A stretch of 32,000 bases of DNA from Desulfobulbus propionicus DSM 2032 (GTDB lineage Bacteria; Desulfobacterota; Desulfobulbia; Desulfobulbales; Desulfobulbaceae): positions 900,001 through 932,000 of the forward strand of contig NC_014972.1 in the NCBI RefSeq assembly GCF_000186885.1, read 5' to 3'. Positions 13,327-23,006 of this stretch are shown one piece after another. The position numbers were made by a program, and so were the translations under genes. The number at the start of each line of letters is the position of its first letter. The first letter of the stretch is position 1. Below the pieces are notes generated by a model. That model had not been told where the DNA came from and did not search any database. It saw only the letters and a program-made list of their open reading frames with translations.

Positions 13327-13599
13327 GAGAATAGGTGTATTGGGGGCAGAACAATCTGTGAGCAATAGACCCGGTTCCGTCGCGGCGAGAGCAACCGGGG
13401 GAACGGGCGGGGCGGGAATCGTGCTGGCCGGTGAATATCTTGACAAGGTGTGCCGCCTGGCTGCGACATCCCCTCCGAAGTCCGCACTCCGGGGACACGT
13501 CCGCCAGAGGACAGGCGAATTGCCCCGCGCGGCGCTGTCATCCGCCGGCAGGCGCCTCGCAACATAGCCATTCTTGGTGGGGAAGTAAACAAGAACACG

Positions 13600-14355
13600 A
13601 TGAGGGATGAGGGATTCGTTGCGCCGACGGCCAAGGTCGCTCTGGTCAGCGCCGCCATGCCACGCCAACGACCGCCGTCTCCGGGAGAGATCATGGACGA
13701 GCACAATGCAGCACCACACGCACGCGACACGGAGGACAGCCGGCTCAACCGGGAACACGGGCATGCCCTGCACAATATTTTCAGCATCATAATCGCCAAC
13801 GCGGAAATGATCGGCGAGGAATCGAGGGGCATGGAGACGCTGCAACGGCGGCTCGACCGGATCATCGCGGCCAGCCGCCGGGGCGAGCAGTTGGTGGACG
13901 GGATACGCTCCCTTTCCAAGGCACGGCATGCGCCCCGGCCCGAACCCACGGAGCAGGCATCGCTTCCCACCGTTGCCGACGGGAGATTGGGCCGTGTGCT
14001 GATCGTCGACGATGAACCCGATGTGGTGGAGATTCTCCGGAGGTACCTTGAACGGGCCGGGTTGCAGGTTCATGGTTTCATCGACAGCCGCGAGGCCTTG
14101 AACGGGCTGCGCCGGGAACCGTTGGCCTACGATCTGGTGATCACCGACCTCGATATGCCGAACCTGGGTGGAATCGAGTTGCGCGAGCAGCTGCGGACCA
14201 TCCGTCCGGACCTGCCAGTCATCGTCATCACCGGCCATGAAGGGCAGTGTTCCGGGGGGCCGTTCTCGCTGTCCGGTGTCACGGAGTGGTTGTCCAAACC
14301 GATCAACCGGAACCACCTGTTGGACACGGTGGGGCGTCTTTTGCCGCCGGCTTGA
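13600..14355 (+). CDS. HisKA (DHp)-like phosphotransfer domain fused to a receiver domain; no HATPase_c domain
   Basis: The H-box-like helix EHGHALHNIFSIIIANAEMIGEE...LQRRLDRIIAASRRGEQLVDGIRSLSK aligns with the H-box region of the hybrid kinase at 24321-25946 (IAHDFNNLLAAILGYAEL...). An intact REC follows directly (VLIVDDEPD, LVITDLDMP, VIVITG, LSKP). The start is uncertain: ATG 13600 or ATG 13693. Confidence 0.7.
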   Translation: MRDEGFVAPTAKVALVSAAMPRQRPPSPGEIMDEHNAAPHARDTEDSRLNREHGHALHNIFSIIIANAEMIGEESRGMETLQRRLDRIIAASRRGEQLVDGIRSLSKARHAPRPEPTEQASLPTVADGRLGRVLIVDDEPDVVEILRRYLERAGLQVHGFIDSREALNGLRREPLAYDLVITDLDMPNLGGIELREQLRTIRPDLPVIVITGHEGQCSGGPFSLSGVTEWLSKPINRNHLLDTVGRLLPPA

Positions 14356-14467
14356 CATTTTCCGGGACAGCCTGTGTAATGGGCGTATGTGGTAGGTGTT
14401 GTGGGCAGAGTTTCTTGAAAATGTTAGACAATATTCCATGTTCCCGTGCTGTGGAACCGGAGAATGG

Positions 14468-15847
14468 ATGGCTGAAATCCTGATTATCGACGATGACCCC
14501 CTGTTCGCGGAAACCGTGGCCGACAAGCTCGACAGCCTGCGGCACACGTCCCGATGCGCGCACACCTTGACCGCCGGCCTTGCCGCGGCGGTCGAGGGCC
14601 GTTTTGACGTGGTACTGCTCGATGTCTGTCTTCCGGACGGCAACGGCCTGCTGGCCATCGATCGGCTGCGTTCCGTGGCCTCGGACCCGCAGGTGATCAT
14701 CATCACCGGCCAGGGAGATCCGGATGGGGCCGAGCTGGCCATCCGTCACGGCGCTTGGTGCTATCTGGAGAAGAGCTCGATTGTCAAGGAGATCACCCTG
14801 CCATTGACCCGGGCCTTGCAGTACCGCCAGGCCCTGAGCGGACAGAAGGCCGTGCTCAAGACGGTGGAGCGCGACCAGCTGGTCGGCGAAAGTCCCCGTT
14901 TCCTCCAATGCCTGGATATGCTGGCCAAGGCGGCGGCAGCCGATGCCAGCGTCCTTGTTTCCGGGGAGTCAGGAACGGGCAAGGAGGCCTTTGCCCGGGC
15001 CATCCATGCCAACAGCCGCCGCAGGAGCGGCAACTTCGTGGTGGTCGACTGCACCGCCCTGCCGGAACAACTGGTGGAAAGCGTGCTTTTTGGCCATGTC
15101 AAGGGTGCCTTCACCGGCGCCGATCGGGCCAATCGCGGTCTGATCCGCCATGCCGACAAGGGAACGCTTTTTCTCGACGAGATCGGCGAGCTGCCGCTGG
15201 CCACCCAGAAAAGTTTCCTCCGTGTCCTTCAGGAACGCACCTTTTGTCCGGTGGGCAGCCAGGAGGAGTGTCACAGCGATTTTCGCCTGATTTGCGCCAC
15301 CAACCGCGATCTGGTGGCCATGACCGAGAAGGGGGTGTTCCGCGAGGATCTGCTCTACCGTCTGCGGGGACTGTCCCTGCACCTGCCGCCCCTGCGCGAG
15401 CGCGACGGCGACATCCCCCGGTTGGTGGAACATTTCCTCAGCCGCTTGGTGCAGCGGTATGGCCAGGAGAGAAAAGAGTGCTTGCCCGATTTCATGGACT
15501 ATCTCACCAGCTACGCCTGGCCGGGCAATGTCCGCGAGCTGTCCCAGGCGATGGAATCCGCCTTTGCCCATGCGGTCTATTCGCCGGTGCTCTTTCCGCA
15601 ACACCTGCCGGTGCATATCCGCACGGCCCATGCCCGAGCCAACGTTCGCGGCCATGAAACGATCCCGGCCGATGTTCCGAGTTCCGAGGCCATTCTTGCC
15701 TGGCGGGAGGCCAAGGATGCCTTTGAGCGCGAGTACACCCAACGGCTTCTCCGCCACAGTGCTGGCAATATCATGGAAGCCGGCCGACTGTCCGGCCTCT
15801 CCCGCACCCGCCTCTACCAGTTGATCAGGAAGTTTCAGCTTGGCTGA
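14468..15847 (+). CDS. Sigma-54-dependent transcriptional activator (REC - AAA+ - Fis-type HTH; NtrC family)
   Basis: REC domain (ILIIDDD, VVLLDVCLPDGNG, IIITG, LEKS). AAA+ domain with Walker A GESGTGKE, the sigma-54 contact loop GAFTGA, ELPLATQKSFLRVLQE and FREDLLYRL. C-terminal HTH GNIMEAGRLSGLSRTRLYQLIRKF. The ATG at 14468 has GGAG 5 nt upstream. The track start at 14396 is an upstream extension. Confidence 0.9.
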   Translation: MAEILIIDDDPLFAETVADKLDSLRHTSRCAHTLTAGLAAAVEGRFDVVLLDVCLPDGNGLLAIDRLRSVASDPQVIIITGQGDPDGAELAIRHGAWCYLEKSSIVKEITLPLTRALQYRQALSGQKAVLKTVERDQLVGESPRFLQCLDMLAKAAAADASVLVSGESGTGKEAFARAIHANSRRRSGNFVVVDCTALPEQLVESVLFGHVKGAFTGADRANRGLIRHADKGTLFLDEIGELPLATQKSFLRVLQERTFCPVGSQEECHSDFRLICATNRDLVAMTEKGVFREDLLYRLRGLSLHLPPLRERDGDIPRLVEHFLSRLVQRYGQERKECLPDFMDYLTSYAWPGNVRELSQAMESAFAHAVYSPVLFPQHLPVHIRTAHARANVRGHETIPADVPSSEAILAWREAKDAFEREYTQRLLRHSAGNIMEAGRLSGLSRTRLYQLIRKFQLG

Positions 15848-16090: not shown

Positions 16091-16106
16091 CGGCATGATC
16101 CTTGCC
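16091..16106 (+). promoter_or_regulatory. Sigma-54 (RpoN) -24/-12 promoter candidate: cGGCATgatccTTGCc
   Basis: GG (16092-16093) and GC (16104-16105) are spaced exactly as in the consensus TGGCAC-N5-TTGC. The element lies about 58 nt upstream of the ATG at 16164. It sits immediately downstream of a sigma-54 activator gene and of a T-rich tract (16069-16083). Confidence 0.6.
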
Positions 16107-16163: not shown

Positions 16164-16568
16164 ATGAACGTGCTGTTGTATGCGGCCAAACAGACGGCAA
16201 GCGGTGAACGGCTGAAACAGTCCATCGAGACATTGACGTCCCTGGAATCCCTGACCGATTGCGGGAGCATCGCGGAATTGATCCAGTATCTGCGAAACCC
16301 CGATCCGTTGCCGGAAACCGTGGTGCTCCAGGCGACAAGCCATCAGGATTTGCAGGTGTTCGAACCCTTCCGTTTTCGGCTGGAAATGGTGTTTTTTGTT
16401 CTGGTGCTGCCGGATGCCGATACAGAGACCGTGGCGCGCGGCCATCAGTTGCGGCCGCGTTTCATCGCCTACCAGGACAGCGATTTCAGCGAGGTCGGCG
16501 CCGTGCTGGCCCGGTTGGAATCCCGCCAGGACCATCGTTTTGGCGCCGGCTCTTCGCGCAATCCTTAG
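16164..16568 (+). CDS. Small hypothetical protein (134 aa); possible degenerate receiver-like alpha/beta fold
   Basis: The ATG at 16164 has GAGGA 7 nt upstream. The alternating hydrophobic-strand pattern (NVLLYAA / TVVLQA / FFVLVLP / RFIAYQD) resembles a CheY-like fold, but the acidic pocket and Lys are absent. The track ORF start at 15894 runs through the promoter region. Confidence 0.55.
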   Translation: MNVLLYAAKQTASGERLKQSIETLTSLESLTDCGSIAELIQYLRNPDPLPETVVLQATSHQDLQVFEPFRFRLEMVFFVLVLPDADTETVARGHQLRPRFIAYQDSDFSEVGAVLARLESRQDHRFGAGSSRNP

Positions 16569-16582
16569 ACGGGGTACTCCCA

Positions 16583-18103
16583 ATGAGTCAGGAACAACTC
16601 TTTGCCTCTTTTCTCCTTGACCGTCAGGCCGATCTCGAGATCGCCCTGCCCGCGGAACAGGTGGTCGAGGCCATGCCCCTCGCGGCCCCGATCCAGCCCT
16701 TGCCCACCGGGGCCTTTTTTCTTGAGGGAATCATGCCGTTGCGGGGCGATGTGATCCCGGTAATCAACCTGAAAAAACGGTTGGCCTTGACGGAAACCGC
16801 ATACGGCGACGATGCCAAGGTGGCAGTGATCCAGTTCAACCGCAAGCGGTACGGCCTGTTGGTGGACGATATCCGCGAAGTGCTGCGGGTTTCCCCCCAC
16901 GCTGTCCAGCCTCTCGATCCCTTTCTTCTCACCGAGGAGACGGTGATCGTCGACCTGATCAAGCTGGACCAGGGGCGGCGGACCCTGGAGCTGCTCGATC
17001 TGCGGCGGCTTTTTCCCACGGGCGGGTCCGGCGTCGACGAGGCCCTTGACCATGACGAGCCGCCACCGGCGGTGCAGCGCAGTTATTCGCAGTTCGTCGT
17101 TTTTTCCTGCCGCCAGCAGATTTACGGCATTCCGGTGGGCGATTCGCGGGAGATCTGCTTTTTCAGCGACATTGACCAGACCTTCAAGAGCGGCAAGGTG
17201 GAAGGCGCCCTGCAGCTGCGCGGTCAGACCATCCCGGTGCTGTGCAGCGCGACCCTGCTCGGTTGCGCGGAAGAAACGATCACCCCCACCGAGGAGACCC
17301 GCATCCTGGTGATGCAGTCGGGGCTTCTGTCCTTTGGTTTGATTGTCGACAAGATCCATCAGATTTTGGTGGTGGCCGACGATGCCATCATGGCCATTCC
17401 GGGGCGTCACCTGCCGCATCTGCGGGGCGTGTGCACCTGCGCGCCCTACAACGACATCATGCTGCTCGATGTTCAGGGGTTGATCGGTTCCCAGGCCGAC
17501 AGAATCAGCGCCATGACGCGGCTGCGCAAGAACAACGGCTCGACCGAGGCGGAGGAGGAATCGGCGGCCCGCCACCTCATCACCGAGCACTGCTATCTCG
17601 TGTTTGCCATCGGCAAGCATTATGCAATTGAACTCAAGGATGTGCAGGAAATCATCGGCTGCGGCGATTGCATGCCGATTGCCGGCGATGGCCTGGTGCA
17701 GGGAATCATCAACCTGCGTGGCCGGATCGTGCCGGTGATCCGCCTGCGCAACTTTTACGCCTGTCCAGACCACAACGTGGTGAGCCGGGACCCCAGCCCG
17801 GAGGACAAGCTGATCATCGGCCGGGCCAATGGCAACCTGGTGGCCTTGCTGGTCGATGAAATTATCACTATCTACAAACAGGAACGGTACCACGCCACCC
17901 CGTCGCTCAGGCCTGAGTTGCAGGCGAAAAAGGACACCCTGGACCGGTTGATCGAGTTCATCAACGGCGAGGGGCTGAAGGAGCATGTGCTGGTTGTCAA
18001 TGTCGCCAATTTGCTGCGTCACCATCTCCTGATCGCGGACCAGGAGACGGTGACGCCCGTGGCGGCGCCGGCGGATTTGATCGATTCGCCGCCAATCAAG
18101 TAA
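16583..18103 (+). CDS. Protein with three tandem CheW-like domains
   Basis: 506 aa from the ATG at 16583, 14 nt after the previous stop. Three copies of the CheW core pattern are present: FLEGIMPLRGDVIPVINLKKRL, VEGALQLRGQTIPVLCSATLLG and LVQGIINLRGRIVPVIRLRNFY. Each is followed by a ...GLLVD/GLIVD/ALLVDEI segment. Confidence 0.85.
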   Translation: MSQEQLFASFLLDRQADLEIALPAEQVVEAMPLAAPIQPLPTGAFFLEGIMPLRGDVIPVINLKKRLALTETAYGDDAKVAVIQFNRKRYGLLVDDIREVLRVSPHAVQPLDPFLLTEETVIVDLIKLDQGRRTLELLDLRRLFPTGGSGVDEALDHDEPPPAVQRSYSQFVVFSCRQQIYGIPVGDSREICFFSDIDQTFKSGKVEGALQLRGQTIPVLCSATLLGCAEETITPTEETRILVMQSGLLSFGLIVDKIHQILVVADDAIMAIPGRHLPHLRGVCTCAPYNDIMLLDVQGLIGSQADRISAMTRLRKNNGSTEAEEESAARHLITEHCYLVFAIGKHYAIELKDVQEIIGCGDCMPIAGDGLVQGIINLRGRIVPVIRLRNFYACPDHNVVSRDPSPEDKLIIGRANGNLVALLVDEIITIYKQERYHATPSLRPELQAKKDTLDRLIEFINGEGLKEHVLVVNVANLLRHHLLIADQETVTPVAAPADLIDSPPIK

Positions 18104-18136: not shown

Positions 18137-20863
18137 ATGGAGGAAACAATGACAACTGGAGCGCAACCACCGATGGGCATGGATCTGACCGTACTGGAGA
18201 CCTGGGAAGAGCCCGGATTTATGGTCGACGGCAAGCGGATCATCACCTGGGCCAACGCGGCGTTTCTCCAAGCCTTCGGTTTGGAGGCGCACGAGGTGAT
18301 CGGCAAGATGACCTGCGAGGAGAGCTGTAATCTGCATCTCTGCGGCACCAAGGACTGTCCGGTGGACAAGGCCGGCCGGATGCACAAACCGGTGGCGGCC
18401 GAGGCAATACGCAACCACGGTGCCAGCATCCGCTATTACCGTTCACTGGCCCGGCCAGTGGGCGAGGATGGCGGTCAAACCCTGGTCACCATGACCGACA
18501 TAAGCGACAGAAAACTGCTGGAAGCGCGGTTACGGCAGATGGAAACCGACCTCAACGTCATCCCTACCCCTGTGCTTGAGATTGACGACAAGTTCACCAT
18601 TACCTTCATGAACCCCGCCGGTGCGGCCGTGGCCGGCCTGACCCCGGACGAGGCCGTGGGCAGGAAGTGCTACGATCTGTTCAAGACCCCCCATTGCCGG
18701 ACCGAGAAATGCGCCTGCGCGCGGGCGATGAAGACCGATTCGGTTGTTTCCGAGCAGACCATCGCCCGTCCCCGGGACGGGGTGATCGTGCCGATCAAGT
18801 ACACCGGCGCGCCGATCAAGGATGCCAAGGGCAACATTGTCGGGGCGATTGAATATGTGCTCGATGTCACCGAAGAAAATAAGCAGCAGCGGCTGGCCGA
18901 GGAGAAGATCGAGAACCTCAATGCCATTCCCACGCCGATCATGGCCATGGACACTGATTTTACCATCACCTTCATGAACCCCGCCGGTGCGGCCGTGGCC
19001 GGCCTGACCCCGGACGAGGCCGTGGGCAGGAAGTGCTACGATCTGTTCAAAACCCCCCATTGCCGGACCGAGAAGTGCGCCTGCGCGCGGGCGATGAAGA
19101 CCGATTCGATTGTTTCCGAGCAGACCATTGCCCGTCCCCGGGACGGGGTGATCGTGCCGATCAAGTACACCGGCGCGCCGATCAAGGATGCCAAGGGCAA
19201 CATCAAGGGTGCCCTGGAGTTTATCCTCGACATCACCGAGGAGGCGCGGCAACGCCACGATGCCAACACCAAGATCGAGAACCTCAACGCCATTCCCACG
19301 CCGATCCTGTCCATCGACACCGACTATACCATCACCTTCATCAATCCCGCCGGTGCGGCCGCCGTCGGCCTCACCCCGGACAGCGCCATCGGCCGCAAAT
19401 GCTTTGACCTGTTCAAAACCCCGCATTGCCAGACCGAACGATGCGCCTGCGCGCGGGCAATGAAGTCCGACACGGTGGTCAGCGAGGAAACCATTGCCCG
19501 GCCCCGGGAAGGCATGATCATGCCGATCAAGTACACCGGCGCGCCGATCAAGGACGCCAAGGGCAACATCACCGGCGCGCTTGAGTTCGTCCTCGACATC
19601 ACCGACGAGGCCCGGCAGCGACAGGAGGCCAACGAAAAGATCGAGAATCTCAACGCCATCCCCACGCCGATCTTCTCCATCGACACCGAGTTCGCCATCA
19701 CCTACATCAATCCGGCCGGCGCCAGGGTTTTGGGGGCGAGCGTCGATGAGTTGATCGGTAAAAAATGTTACAGCCTGTTCAACACCACCCACTGCAACAC
19801 CGAACACTGTGCCTGCGGCCAGGCGATGAAAAGCGATAGCGTGGTCGCGGCCAAGACCGTGGCCAGGGTCAACGGCCGCGAGATCCCGCTCAAGTACACC
19901 GGCGCGCCGATCAAGGACGCCAAGGGCAACATCAAGGGCGCCCTGGAGTTTGCCCTCGACATCAGTGCCGAAACCGGGGTTGAGCAACTGGTGAGCCGGG
20001 CCAGTCAGGAGGTGGCCGAGTTGGTGGCCGATTCCCAGCAGCAGATGGAGGAGGTGCGCGGCAACATGCGGTTGATGGGCGATTCGCTCAACCAGGAAGT
20101 AATCCGCCTCGACGAGTCGGAGACGACCATTCGCAGAATGCTCGAATCGTCCACCGAAATGCTCGGGGTGAGCGAGCAGGTCAACAAGCTGGCCGGCTCG
20201 ATGTCGCGCGAGGCGGAAAATGGTCGCAAGGCCGGAGCCGAGGCCGGCGACAAGATGCGGCAGATCAACCGATCGATGCAGCAGAACAACGAGATGGTCG
20301 CCACCCTGGTGTCCCAGGTGGAAAAGATCGGCGGCTTTGTCGATATCATCAAGGAGATCGCCTCGCAAACCAACTTGCTGGCCTTCAACGCCGCCATCGA
20401 GGCCGCGCGCGCCGGCGATGCCGGCCGGGGGTTCGCCGTGGTTGCCGACGAAGTGCGCAAGCTGGCCGAGAACAGCTCGCGCTCGGCGGTGGATATTTCC
20501 AATATCGTCAAGATGGTGGAGAACGACAGCCGGCAGACCATCGCCGCCATGCAGGAGGGCATGCGCATGCTCGATGACGGCTCCCAGGTGATCAGTACCG
20601 CGCTTTCGGCCATGGACGAGATCTCTTCCGGCATCATGACGATCTCGACCTCGGTCGAGGACGTCAGCGGCCGAGCCGCAGCCTTGGCTGACCACGGCCA
20701 CAAGGTGATGGAGCAGATTCAAGCCGTGGTCACGTCCTCCGGCGAGAACCAAAGGACCACGGAAACCGTGCAGACCTCGGTCGGTGACACGGTCAAGGCC
20801 CTGGACCGGTTGATGGCCTCGAGCAGTTCGTTGCAAGAGGCGGTCAACAGTCTGTGCAAATAG
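18137..20863 (+). CDS. Soluble methyl-accepting chemotaxis protein with five N-terminal Cys-rich PAS-like modules
   Basis: The C-terminal signalling domain has the invariant hairpin tip [37 protein letters not shown]. No hydrophobic TM-length segment was seen by eye. The N-terminal ~620 aa are repeated PAS-like units. The alternative ATG at 18149 has a better SD (GGAGGA, 4-5 nt spacer). Confidence 0.9.
18542..20005 (+). repeat. Four in-frame tandem repeats of 366 bp (122 codons) inside the chemoreceptor gene
   Basis: The anchor TTCATGAACC/TTCATCAATC/TACATCAATC recurs at 18605, 18971, 19337 and 19703, exactly 366 bp apart. The block TACACCGGCGCGCCGATCAAGGA(T/C)GCCAAGGGCAACAT is conserved in all four units. 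Confidence 0.92.
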
Positions 20864-20872
20864 GGTGCATTC

Positions 20873-20910
20873 GGCGCGGCCGGAGCCCGAGAGTCGGGTC
20901 CCGCCGCGCC
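20873..20910 (+). other. GC-rich intercistronic stem-loop between the chemoreceptor gene and the GNAT gene
   Basis: GGCGCGG-CC-GGA-G-CCCGA-GAG-TCGGG-TCC-CG-CCGCGCC gives about 16 possible base pairs and a GAG loop. It starts 10 nt after the TAG stop. No U-tract follows it, and the GNAT SD (GGGAGGA) starts at 20918. Confidence 0.5.
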
Positions 20911-20933
20911 GCCCAGTGGGAGGATATGGTGTC

Positions 20934-21497
20934 ATGACCATTTTTGGCAACAGGATCTTCACCGTGCGTTTGCAGCTGCGGCGCATCGAGCTCGAAGACC
21001 TGCAGCTTTTGGCGCGATGGAGCGGCGACCCCCAGGCCCATGGACAGTACCTGACGCCGGAAAACCATTCCGTCGATCATCTGGGCATGCAGCTACGGGC
21101 GGGGGTATTGTGGAACGAGCGGAACAAGACGTTTTTGATCGAGCTGCGCGACGGCGAGCCCATCGGCACGATCCAATACTGGATTCGCTCCGAGGACCCG
21201 GGAGCGGCGGTGATTGCGGTGAAGATTGCACGGACCGAGGAGCGGAACAAAGGCTACGGGACCGAGGCGCAGAAATATTTGATCCTGTTTCTCTTCAACC
21301 GGCTCGCCATCCGTCGGATCGAGATGTACACCGATGTCAACAACCTGGCCCAGCAGCGCTGCCTGCGCAAACTCGGCTTCGAACTCGCCCAGTCCCTGTC
21401 CTACGCCGATCAACAGGTTCAGCGGCTGGGCTCCCTCTACCGGCTGGATCGGCAGCGATTTGTCCATGAGCCCATCTACCAGTATCCCGATGCCTAA
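20934..21497 (+). CDS. GNAT-family N-acetyltransferase (RimJ/RimL-like)
   Basis: 187 aa from the ATG at 20934, with GGGAGGA 9 nt upstream. The acetyl-CoA-binding motif context is present (RNKGYGTEAQKYLILFLF; NNLAQQRCLRKLGFEL). The track start at 20865 would run through the stem-loop. Confidence 0.85.
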   Translation: MTIFGNRIFTVRLQLRRIELEDLQLLARWSGDPQAHGQYLTPENHSVDHLGMQLRAGVLWNERNKTFLIELRDGEPIGTIQYWIRSEDPGAAVIAVKIARTEERNKGYGTEAQKYLILFLFNRLAIRRIEMYTDVNNLAQQRCLRKLGFELAQSLSYADQQVQRLGSLYRLDRQRFVHEPIYQYPDA

Positions 21498-22521
21498 GCC
21501 GCCAGGGCTTCTTTTTGACCGCAGGTACTACGAGCACGGCATCCCGCAGGTGTCGCTGGAGAACGCGGGCCGGGTGCGCGGCCTCTATCGTACCCTCGAA
21601 GGACCGCAATATGCCGGCCAGCTGCGCACATTCCTCCCGCGCGAGGCCTCGTCGGCCGACATTGAAGCCGTCCATTCGGCCTTTTACCTCGAACAGCTGC
21701 GCGAGCATGTCAATATCGACGATCCCTATTCCTACGACCGCGATACCTATCTGATGGAGCAGAGCCTCTATACGGCGGCCTTGGCCGCCGGCGGCTGCCT
21801 GGAGCTGGCCGATCGGATCCTCGACGGCGAGATCGACTATGGCTTCGCCCTGATCCGCCCTCCCGGACACCATGCCGAACCGGGTCGGGGCATGGGGTTC
21901 TGCGTGTTCAACAATGTGGCGATCACCGCTCAATATCTGCGCCGGGTGTATGGCCTGCGGCGGATTCTCATCGTCGATTTCGACGTCCATCACGGCAATG
22001 GCACCCAGACAGTTTTTTACGAGACCGATCAGGTTTTTTTCGTTTCGATCCATCAGGAAAAAATTTTCCCTTTTTCCGGATCGGCGCGCGAGACCGGCAG
22101 CGACAAGGGACGGGGCTACACCATCAACCTGCCGGTGCACCCGCAGTTCAGCGACCAGGAGTACCTGTATCTGCTCAGCCGGGTTCTCGGCGGGGTGGTG
22201 GAACAGTATCTGCCGCAGATCATCCTTGTTTCCGCCGGATTTGACGGCCATTGCGACGACCCGATCAGCCGTGTCCTGCTGTCCACCCAATGGTATGCCA
22301 CCGTGACGGAACTGCTCAAATACCTGGCCCACGAGGCGTGCAACGACCGGCTGCTGTTCGTGCTGGAAGGAGGGTACAATCCGGACTCGCTGCAGGCCTC
22401 GGTGCTGGTCACGGTGGACAGCCTGCTGCATCCCGCCAGCCGCCGGCCGGGAGTGGTCCATTCCCAACGGGCGGCCAAGATCCTTGAGAATCATCCCCTG
22501 CATGCTTTCTGGACGGTATGA
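21490..22521 (+). CDS. Histone-deacetylase-family zinc amidohydrolase (deacetylase; AcuC / acetylpolyamine amidohydrolase-like)
   Basis: Catalytic motifs are present: RPPGHHA, DFDVHHGNGTQ, SAGFDGH, LEGGY. The ATG at 21490 overlaps the GNAT stop (ATGCCTAA, 8-nt overlap). Confidence 0.9.
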   Translation: MPKPPGLLFDRRYYEHGIPQVSLENAGRVRGLYRTLEGPQYAGQLRTFLPREASSADIEAVHSAFYLEQLREHVNIDDPYSYDRDTYLMEQSLYTAALAAGGCLELADRILDGEIDYGFALIRPPGHHAEPGRGMGFCVFNNVAITAQYLRRVYGLRRILIVDFDVHHGNGTQTVFYETDQVFFVSIHQEKIFPFSGSARETGSDKGRGYTINLPVHPQFSDQEYLYLLSRVLGGVVEQYLPQIILVSAGFDGHCDDPISRVLLSTQWYATVTELLKYLAHEACNDRLLFVLEGGYNPDSLQASVLVTVDSLLHPASRRPGVVHSQRAAKILENHPLHAFWTV

Positions 22522-22556: not shown

Positions 22557-23006
22557 ATGACAAAAAACACAACCGTTGATACCACGTCGCTGCGGACGAT
22601 CTTCGCTGAATGCCGCCAGTGCGGCACCTGTTGCACCTCTTATCGCAAAATCGCCCTCCAGCCCGACGAGGTGGAGTTTATACGAAAGATGGGCGGCCAT
22701 GTCGGGGTGGACATCAGCTTGTCCCAGCTGCGCGGCAAAACCATGGACGAGTTGGTGGCCGAGGCCCGTGCCGACGGCAAGGTGTTCATGATCCACCCCG
22801 ACGACAGGGGATGTATTTTCCTTGAGAAAAGAAATGACAAGCATGTCTGCCGGATCTATCACCACCGGCCGCGCGCCTGTCGAGGATTCCGCTGCAATAT
22901 GGCCGATTCCAGCTTTCTCGCCCTGTTCGGCGCCGACAGCATTTTCCTGCTCGGTCAGGATCGTTTCGGCCTGCCGTTGGCCAGGGACAAGGAGGTGATC
23001 CGCTAG
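22557..23006 (+). CDS. YkgJ-family cysteine-cluster protein (CxxCxxCC; putative Zn/Fe-binding)
   Basis: An N-terminal CRQCGTCC motif plus a second Cys group (CIFL...HVCRIYHHRPRACRGFRC), as in the UPF0153/YkgJ family. No obvious SD was seen. Confidence 0.75.
   Translation: MTKNTTVDTTSLRTIFAECRQCGTCCTSYRKIALQPDEVEFIRKMGGHVGVDISLSQLRGKTMDELVAEARADGKVFMIHPDDRGCIFLEKRNDKHVCRIYHHRPRACRGFRCNMADSSFLALFGADSIFLLGQDRFGLPLARDKEVIR

Follow-up and report, generated by a model that had tools for sequence, protein, structure and literature searches.

Chemoreceptor signaling is among the best-understood bacterial sensory systems. The covalent receptor modifications known to us are methylation/demethylation and deamidation, and we know of no chemoreceptor for which lysine acetylation has been shown; acetylation of CheY is known in Escherichia coli. 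In this study, we analyzed a 32,000-nucleotide stretch of Desulfobulbus propionicus DSM 2032 (positions 900,001 to 932,000 of NC_014972.1, the single contig of 3,851,869 bp that makes up the host genome), hereafter called the window. In the window, overlapping genes for a GNAT acetyltransferase and an HDAC-family deacetylase lie behind the genes for a triple-CheW scaffold protein (CheW3) and a soluble methyl-accepting chemotaxis protein (MCP) and are followed by a gene for a CxxCxxCC protein. Coordinates refer to the window unless they are given for the host genome.

The closest known logic is that of AcuA/AcuC on AcsA and of CheR/CheB on receptors, and the GNAT/HDAC pair is a member of neither. 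In Bacillus subtilis, acuABC provides a GNAT writer and a classical deacetylase eraser that act on the acetyl-CoA synthetase AcsA (PMC11532494). The pair resembles AcuA/AcuC in that a GNAT and a Zn-dependent HDAC-family deacetylase are encoded together, which in AcuA/AcuC are dedicated to one protein substrate. However, AcuC falls in the class-I-like sub-cluster 2c, whereas the HDAC of the module best matches class IIb/HdaH. The GNAT is of the Acetyltransf_3 type; no AcuA entry turned up in our searches, and no direct comparison with AcuA was made. No AcsA, AcuB, or CBS-domain gene is found near the pair, whose neighbors encode the MCP, CheW3, and the CxxCxxCC protein, and the pair does not fall within the AcuA/AcuC system.

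As in the case of CheR/CheB (CheD), the receptor and CheW genes are accompanied by genes for two enzymes that act against each other on a covalent modification, and, given the hairpin described below, the GNAT and HDAC are probably made at a lower level than the receptor, which lacks conserved Glx methylation pairs. The two systems are not homologous: the module has GNAT and HDAC folds, whereas CheR and CheB are an S-adenosylmethionine methyltransferase and a methylesterase. Moreover, the chemistry of the module would be lysine acetylation, presumably acting on the receptor, and CheR and CheB are present elsewhere in the host genome. Rhodobacter sphaeroides TlpT/CheW4 and Vibrio cholerae DosM cluster I likewise comprise a soluble MCP that has its own CheW-type adaptor and a canonical signaling tip; however, these systems encode their own CheA, CheY, and CheR/CheB, while the module encodes none of these, includes the GNAT/HDAC pair, and combines three CheW domains in one protein. 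The RPPGHH, PIS, and EGGY motifs of the HDAC are shared with the bacterial ApaH enzymes (cluster 4, Graf et al. 2024), and the GNAT fold resembles SpeG. The overall similarity and the N-terminal length of the HDAC differ from those of ApaH, as detailed below. We know of no ApaH or SpeG that is encoded with chemoreceptors. No description of the module was found in literature searches on chemoreceptor acetylation, on GNATs or deacetylases with CheW, or on CheA-less systems.

The results presented here give good support to a functional tie between the pair and the receptor. In all genomes that we examined, the pair was seen solely next to one soluble-receptor family and its CheW3 adaptor, and this holds in several orders of anaerobes, which points to a further, acetylation-based layer of control that could act on the receptor complex, a partner protein, or a linked metabolite. 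We tentatively prefer the reading that the pair is a coupled acetyl writer and eraser dedicated to the soluble-receptor module, acting on a module protein, and that the receptor signals via a distal CheA. This hypothesis is directly testable, given a host that can be cultured, a compact module of four or five genes, and two enzymes that look catalytically competent.

Association of the enzyme pair with the receptor genes

In the window, the pair is preceded on the same strand by the gene for CheW3 (positions 16574 to 18103, + strand; three CheW stretches by Pfam, 1.8e-56) and that for the MCP (18137 to 20863, + strand; five PAS domains and an MCPsignal domain by Pfam). When the GNAT alignment alone was used to search 185,579 species of bacteria and archaea, each represented by a single genome, 80 loci were retrieved, in which the window proteins were then located by tblastn. 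An MCP match is found upstream of the GNAT gene on the same strand in 78 of the 80 loci, with CheW3 further upstream where the contig reaches. In the other two (L101 and L103, of one lineage), the receptor genes are divergent from GNAT-HDAC and lie on the opposite strand; L103 has the CxxCxxCC, MCP, and CheW3 genes there, and the short contig of L101 has only CheW3. The HDAC gene follows the GNAT gene in 78 loci, and the remaining two contigs end inside the GNAT gene.

The loci occur in Desulfobulbus, Desulfogranum, Desulfofustis, Desulfopila, Desulforhopalus, Desulfocapsa, Desulfotalea, Desulfobacter, and Desulfosarcina, as well as in two Geopsychrobacteraceae, Halochromatium, and a lineage of metagenome-assembled genomes (MAGs) labeled Cyanobacteria. 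The module therefore spans Desulfobulbales, Desulfobacterales, Geopsychrobacteraceae, and Halochromatium. The CxxCxxCC gene adjoins the other genes in most loci but is shifted in front of the GNAT gene in L102, L104, and L108; in the Geopsychrobacteraceae and Halochromatium the order is CheW3-MCP-CxxCxxCC-GNAT-HDAC. The flanks of the rearranged modules are unrelated to one another and unlike the window, and they include purM/purN, LysR, GGDEF-EAL, glycosyltransferase, hydrogenase-like subunit, RTX, and radical SAM genes. A divergent subgroup of four loci (L109 to L112) has CheW3-MCP-GNAT-HDAC without an adjacent CxxCxxCC gene and without the GNAT/HDAC overlap, which reduces the constant core to four genes. 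GNAT identity in this subgroup (G162:C46, G207:C2, G283:C89, and G215:C48) is 35 to 39%, and several of the MAGs have in-frame stop codons in GNAT and/or CheW3; these loci may represent a distinct variant of the module, copies in decay, or artifacts of assembly.

For the phyletic pattern, 301 Desulfobulbales genomes were drawn evenly. Of these, 47 carry the GNAT subfamily and 49 carry CheW3; 47 have both and 252 have neither, and the two genomes with CheW3 only show a match that is partial or contains an in-frame stop. One genome (G217) carries two full GNAT copies (C7:106851-107414 and C101:47998-48561), each with CheW3 a few kilobases away, so the module can be duplicated.

Both enzyme subfamilies were found only in the module, as judged from sharp drops in score and from the phyletic pattern. 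Among 1.84 billion representative proteins, the GNAT profile retrieved approximately 16 clusters, full-length or fragmentary, with scores of at least 156 bits, after which scores fall to approximately 90 bits for generic GNATs, and no fusion of GNAT to CheW, MCP, PAS, REC, or any other domain was seen among the true subfamily members in this set. Three proteins of 509 to 857 amino acids (P0017, P0018, and P0021) match positions ~100 to 150 of the profile three to five times each and may be tandem partial repeats or assembly artifacts. HDAC orthologues (at least 57% identity and at least 447 bits) occur only in the module; the next-best homologues (231 bits, ~40% identity) are housekeeping paralogues present in nearly every genome. 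At 1739149 to 1741995 of the host genome, the closest HDAC paralogue (42% identity) is convergent to another MCP gene. This second HDAC-MCP adjacency was rejected as a meaningful pairing and is ascribed to coincidence, as it is absent from 14 related loci.

The functional tie to the receptor, which an earlier note on this DNA had called speculation, is well supported by these data: loci retrieved with GNAT alone carry the MCP and CheW3 genes through rearrangement and among unrelated flanks, and GNAT and CheW3 co-occur almost perfectly in the 301 genomes. None of the 80 loci has the pair among neighbors unrelated to the receptor. The pairwise distances of GNAT, HDAC, CheW3, the CxxCxxCC protein, and the C terminus of the MCP correlate (r = 0.69 to 0.90), as expected of a block that is inherited and transferred as a unit. 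Such correlation would also follow from simple co-inheritance, in which the pair hitch-hikes in a block passed on as one piece and has no functional connection to the receptor, and related genomes are non-independent samples. However, the association persists at 40 to 50% GNAT identity and extends to two phylum-level groups and several orders, neither two independent rearrangements nor a complete turnover of the flanks has broken it, and GNATs and HDACs of these subfamilies were not found outside the module. Hitch-hiking is disfavored by these observations, and we regard it as extremely improbable.

Overlap and expression of the gene pair

The GNAT gene (187 amino acids; 20934 to 21497, + strand) starts with ATG at 20934, has the Shine-Dalgarno sequence GGGAGGA 5' of this codon (20918 to 20924), and stops with TAA at 21495 to 21497. 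The HDAC gene (343 amino acids; 21490 to 22521, + strand) starts with ATG at 21490, and no purine-rich Shine-Dalgarno sequence is found 5' of this codon, which fits termination-reinitiation. The two reading frames share the 8 nucleotides ATGCCTAA (21490 to 21497, + strand). In 73 orthologous loci, the overlap is 8 nucleotides in 54, 11 nucleotides in 13, and of other length in 3; being kept in 70 of the 73 loci, it is not due to chance. As read from the arrangement of these signals, translation of the HDAC probably depends on ribosomes that terminate on the GNAT message. The 8-nucleotide overlap, the same-strand spacing of 70 nucleotides behind the MCP stop, and the translational coupling of the pair had all been proposed in the earlier note; the first two are exactly as described, the MCP reading frame ending at 20863 and the gap extending from 20864 to 20933, and the coupling gains support from the conservation of the overlap.

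The gap between the MCP and GNAT genes contains a GC-rich hairpin without a U-tract (20872 to 20911, + strand). The 83-nucleotide stretch from 20858 to 20940 has a minimum free energy of -40.3 kcal/mol (z = -2.27), and no sigma-70-like promoter was found on the + strand of the 70-nucleotide gap. Across 66 orthologous loci, the corresponding gap (median, ~60 nucleotides) has a mean z of -3.4 against shuffled sequence, and in 50 of them its fold is the more stable one at z < -2; the hairpin is conserved as a structure and not as a sequence. Conserved intercistronic stems are typical of operons that hold downstream cistrons at a lower level, and the hairpin probably keeps the GNAT and HDAC less abundant than the receptor and scaffold. 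It may set the ratio of receptor to enzyme expression or mark an RNA processing site.

The receptor and its probable kinase partner

The MCP has a canonical signaling tip of distinct sequence. The distance from the hairpin tip to the C terminus (148 amino acids) is identical to that of 11 other MCPs of the genome, including ones encoded beside two CheA genes; the cassette MCP thus probably falls in the length class of these receptors and might use the kinase that serves them. No adjacent Glu/Gln pair is conserved in 75 MCP orthologues, while the MCPs of the same length class in the genome show EE/EQ motifs. The cassette MCP is therefore probably not adapted by canonical methylation.

No gene for CheA, CheY, CheR, or CheB is present in the cassette, and none was seen within the module or adjoining it at any of the loci inspected. 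CheA and CheY are thus not encoded with the receptor, and the CheA genes of the host are 1.0 to 1.7 Mb away. The host genome encodes CheA three times (at 1.95, 2.09, and 2.60 Mb) and CheR twice, with a standard CheA-MCP-CheW-CheB-CheR string at 2.089 to 2.096 Mb (names taken from translations of open reading frames and Pfam hits). The earlier note had seen a receptor cassette lacking CheB and CheR and had considered a new adaptation or output logic; the lack of these genes in the cassette stands, but the new logic stays hypothetical, and the genome has three CheA and two CheR genes elsewhere. Two of the host CheA genes (genome positions 2089003 to 2091876, 957 amino acids, and 2597117 to 2599825, 902 amino acids) have two or three C-terminal CheW-like domain hits each, and CheW3 might mimic the kinase-less part of such multi-CheW-domain CheA proteins in the array lattice.

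The absence of CheA, CheY, CheR, and CheB genes from the module and its surroundings, together with three CheW domains in one protein that could form kinase-free rings, also suits a scheme in which the complex of MCP and CheW3 is a scaffold that works without CheA and has the GNAT and/or HDAC as its output enzymes. The state of the receptor would then govern the acetylation of proteins not encoded in the cassette, for example CheY, CheA, or enzymes of metabolism; the established acetylation of CheY in E. coli is in line with such targets. However, CheA is present in all 47 module-bearing Desulfobulbales genomes, compared with 243 of the 301 genomes overall, and the module is absent from all 11 Desulfobulbus genomes that lack CheA. 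CheA was likewise found in 39 of the 40 module genomes reached from the GNAT-retrieved loci, and the canonical tip and the 148-amino-acid length of the MCP are those of the CheA-linked receptors of the genome. We consider this scheme quite improbable, and since all module genomes of the Desulfobulbales sample have CheA, a self-contained pathway without CheA was dropped as the leading idea. A methylation-free genome background was also rejected, as the five single-CheA module genomes encode CheR.

Structure and family of the acetyltransferase

The GNAT matches PF13302 (Acetyltransf_3) with 73.8 bits (cut-off, 25.4; 3e-20), and PF00583 and PF13523 are also above their cut-offs. The acetyl-CoA motif R104-x-x-G107-x-G109 is invariant in 56 GNAT orthologues. 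In the AlphaFold2 model (pLDDT = 92.8), the top fold matches are all GNATs (TM = 0.72 to 0.79) and include the small-amine enzymes AAC(6')-Ib and SpeG, a spermidine acetyltransferase, as well as RimJ and a lasso-peptide acetyltransferase. Among solved structures, the sequence matches are few and weak and comprise AAC(6')-Ib and a single putative acetyltransferase of ribosomal proteins. No RimJ/RimL model of NCBIfam matched the protein; the only matches were to models of aminoglycoside 6'-N-acetyltransferase, AAC(6'), and these fell far short of the cut-offs (33 bits versus 280). The assignment as RimJ/RimL-like in the earlier note holds at the level of the GNAT superfamily and of the RimJ/RimL-like clan (PF13302) but not as orthology to RimJ/RimL, for which no equivalog match was found, and the subfamily is separate from generic GNATs. 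Residues 178 to 187, which form a tail outside the catalytic domain (...PIY.YHY), are conserved.

Class and specificity motifs of the deacetylase

The HDAC matches PF00850 (Hist_deacetyl) with 316 bits (2.6e-94). The motifs RPPGHHA (123 to 129), DFDVHHGNG (163 to 171), GFDGH (250 to 254), and EGGY (293 to 296) are all present, in agreement with the reading of the earlier note that the catalytic motifs are intact, and are at least 95% conserved in 75 orthologues, as is the catalytic set of H127-H128, D165/H167/D252, and Y296. From these residues and those of the GNAT, both enzymes look catalytically competent. The best matches in PDB are both catalytic domains (CD1 and CD2) of HDAC6 (~1e-50 per domain), a bacterial HDAC-domain protein (8szt, 3e-61), and HDAH (1zz0, 5e-59). 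By closest overall similarity and the presence of the RPP motif, which Graf et al. (2024, PMC11532494) report as invariant throughout cluster 1, the protein is a Zn-dependent deacetylase of the class IIb/HdaH-like group (cluster 1). RPPGHH and EGGY mark robust deacetylases and not long-chain deacylases (Graf et al. 2024, PMC11532494). A second conserved tail is found outside the catalytic domain at residues 320 to 343 (...RAAKIL.NHP.H.FWT); it and the C-terminal tail of the GNAT might be docking or autoregulatory motifs.

The residue after a conserved DP is the substrate gatekeeper, and the motif at this place is PEG in the polyamine deacetylase HDAC10, PKG in CD1 of HDAC6, and PIS in bacterial ApaH enzymes, for which polyamines as well as lysine are substrates (Graf et al. 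2024, PMC11532494). In the HDAC of the module, P258-I259-S260 aligns with PLG of CD2 and PKG of CD1 of HDAC6; the Ile is at least 80% and the Ser at least 95% conserved in 75 orthologues. An HDAC10-type polyamine deacetylase was ruled out, as the gatekeeper is Ile and not Glu. ApaH is characterized by an extended N-terminal L1 hairpin and an L2 polyamine-specificity loop that form a head-to-head dimer. RPPGHH starts at residue 123 in the HDAC, compared with residue 154 in ApaH, and the N-terminal region is ~30 residues shorter than that of ApaH and ~16 residues shorter than that of KpHdaH. To judge from this position, the HDAC probably lacks the L1/L2 loops that restrict access to the active site. 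No ApaH entry is among the 60 best PDB matches listed, which are led by HDAC6 and HDAH.

Substrate and proposed mechanism

According to the reading we tentatively prefer, the GNAT would transfer an acetyl group from acetyl-CoA to a lysine of the MCP signaling domain or of CheW3, both proteins of the module, and the HDAC would remove it. The modification would tune the signaling state of a receptor that has no conserved methylation sites, and the output of the receptor would pass through a CheA encoded elsewhere in the genome and not through a CheA-independent route.

Several points weigh against this reading. Sequence and fold would fit a small amine as well as a protein lysine; the predicted fold of the GNAT is as close to the small-amine enzymes AAC(6')-Ib and SpeG as to the protein acetyltransferase RimJ, and the HDAC sequence carries PIS, the motif tied to bacterial acetylpolyamine amidohydrolases. 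Neither the GNAT nor the HDAC has a recognizable docking domain. As read from the alignment, the conserved lysines of the MCP (K706, K730, K739, K775, and K792) are near the tip and not in the adaptation region, and some of them are generic to MCPs. Finally, CheR was found in all five single-CheA module genomes that were checked, so methylation is available.

The main rival is accordingly a small-molecule cycle on a polyamine or another amine, tied to the sensing of the receptor or to assembly of its complex, in which the cassette proteins are not substrates. The SpeG and AAC(6')-Ib fold matches, the solved-structure and NCBIfam matches of the GNAT, the ApaH-like motifs of the HDAC, and the absence of a visible docking domain are all what such a cycle would lead one to expect. 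However, the HDAC is overall much closer to HDAC6/HDAH than to ApaH, the loops for polyamine specificity are probably missing, and enzymes with the PIS motif deacetylate lysine too (PMC11532494). In addition, an unregulated writer and eraser acting on a metabolite would constitute a futile cycle, we see no link between the cysteine-rich PAS sensors and polyamines, and the strict co-occurrence with MCP and CheW3 would need a separate explanation. We consider a small-molecule cycle rather unlikely; even with a small amine as the substrate, obligate linkage to a receptor would be new.

Within the preferred reading of a protein substrate, a more specific proposal is that reversible lysine acetylation of the MCP or CheW3 replaces CheR/CheB methylation for this receptor and couples its sensitivity to the acetyl-CoA state. 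We hold this stronger proposal to be unlikely; if true, it would provide the first chemoreceptor shown to adapt by acetylation.

The CxxCxxCC protein and other genes of the window

The CxxCxxCC gene (PF03692, 2.5e-09; 22557 to 23006, + strand) is a frequent but not universal member of the module. The encoded protein has eight invariant cysteines, which is typical of metal or Fe-S binding. It has no sequence match to any solved structure and no NCBIfam family match, and its AlphaFold2 model, of moderate confidence (pLDDT = 76.5), has no PDB fold match at E <= 0.001. The cysteines, together with the co-inheritance of the module genes, could indicate that the GNAT, HDAC, and CxxCxxCC protein are maturation or repair factors that insert or protect a cofactor in the PAS sensors of the receptor and have no part in signaling. 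However, no cofactor-assembly pathway with a GNAT/HDAC pair is known, L109 to L112 keep CheW3-MCP-GNAT-HDAC without an adjacent CxxCxxCC gene, and opposing activities suit regulation more than one-way maturation. A role in maturation is thus very doubtful.

Upstream of the module are a gene for an NtrC-type (sigma-54) activator (14396 to 15847, Pfam) and, by pattern scan, a candidate sigma-54 -24/-12 element, CGGCATGATCCTTGCC (16091 to 16106, + strand). Similar elements (TGGCAC-N5-xTGCT-like) occur ~480 to 570 nucleotides 5' of CheW3, with at least 9 of the 11 consensus positions in 28 of 56 loci. Just upstream of the activator gene, a reading frame of up to 301 amino acids (13450 to 14355, + strand) encodes a C-terminal receiver domain and an N-terminal part that resembles the dimerization/phosphotransfer region of histidine kinases; no ATPase domain was detected in it. 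Further neighbors identified by Pfam are an Fe-alcohol dehydrogenase and a PAS hybrid kinase, which lie 3' of the module in Desulfobulbus-like genomes but in no others.

In the window and its close relatives, the leader of CheW3 is filled by a small reading frame of 134 amino acids without an assigned family, located here between the candidate sigma-54 promoter and CheW3 (16164 to 16568, + strand). It is conserved by tblastn just 5' of CheW3 in seven loci of the Desulfobulbus/Desulfogranum type (44 to 74% identity), with weak matches in three more, and may be an extra member of the module in close relatives.

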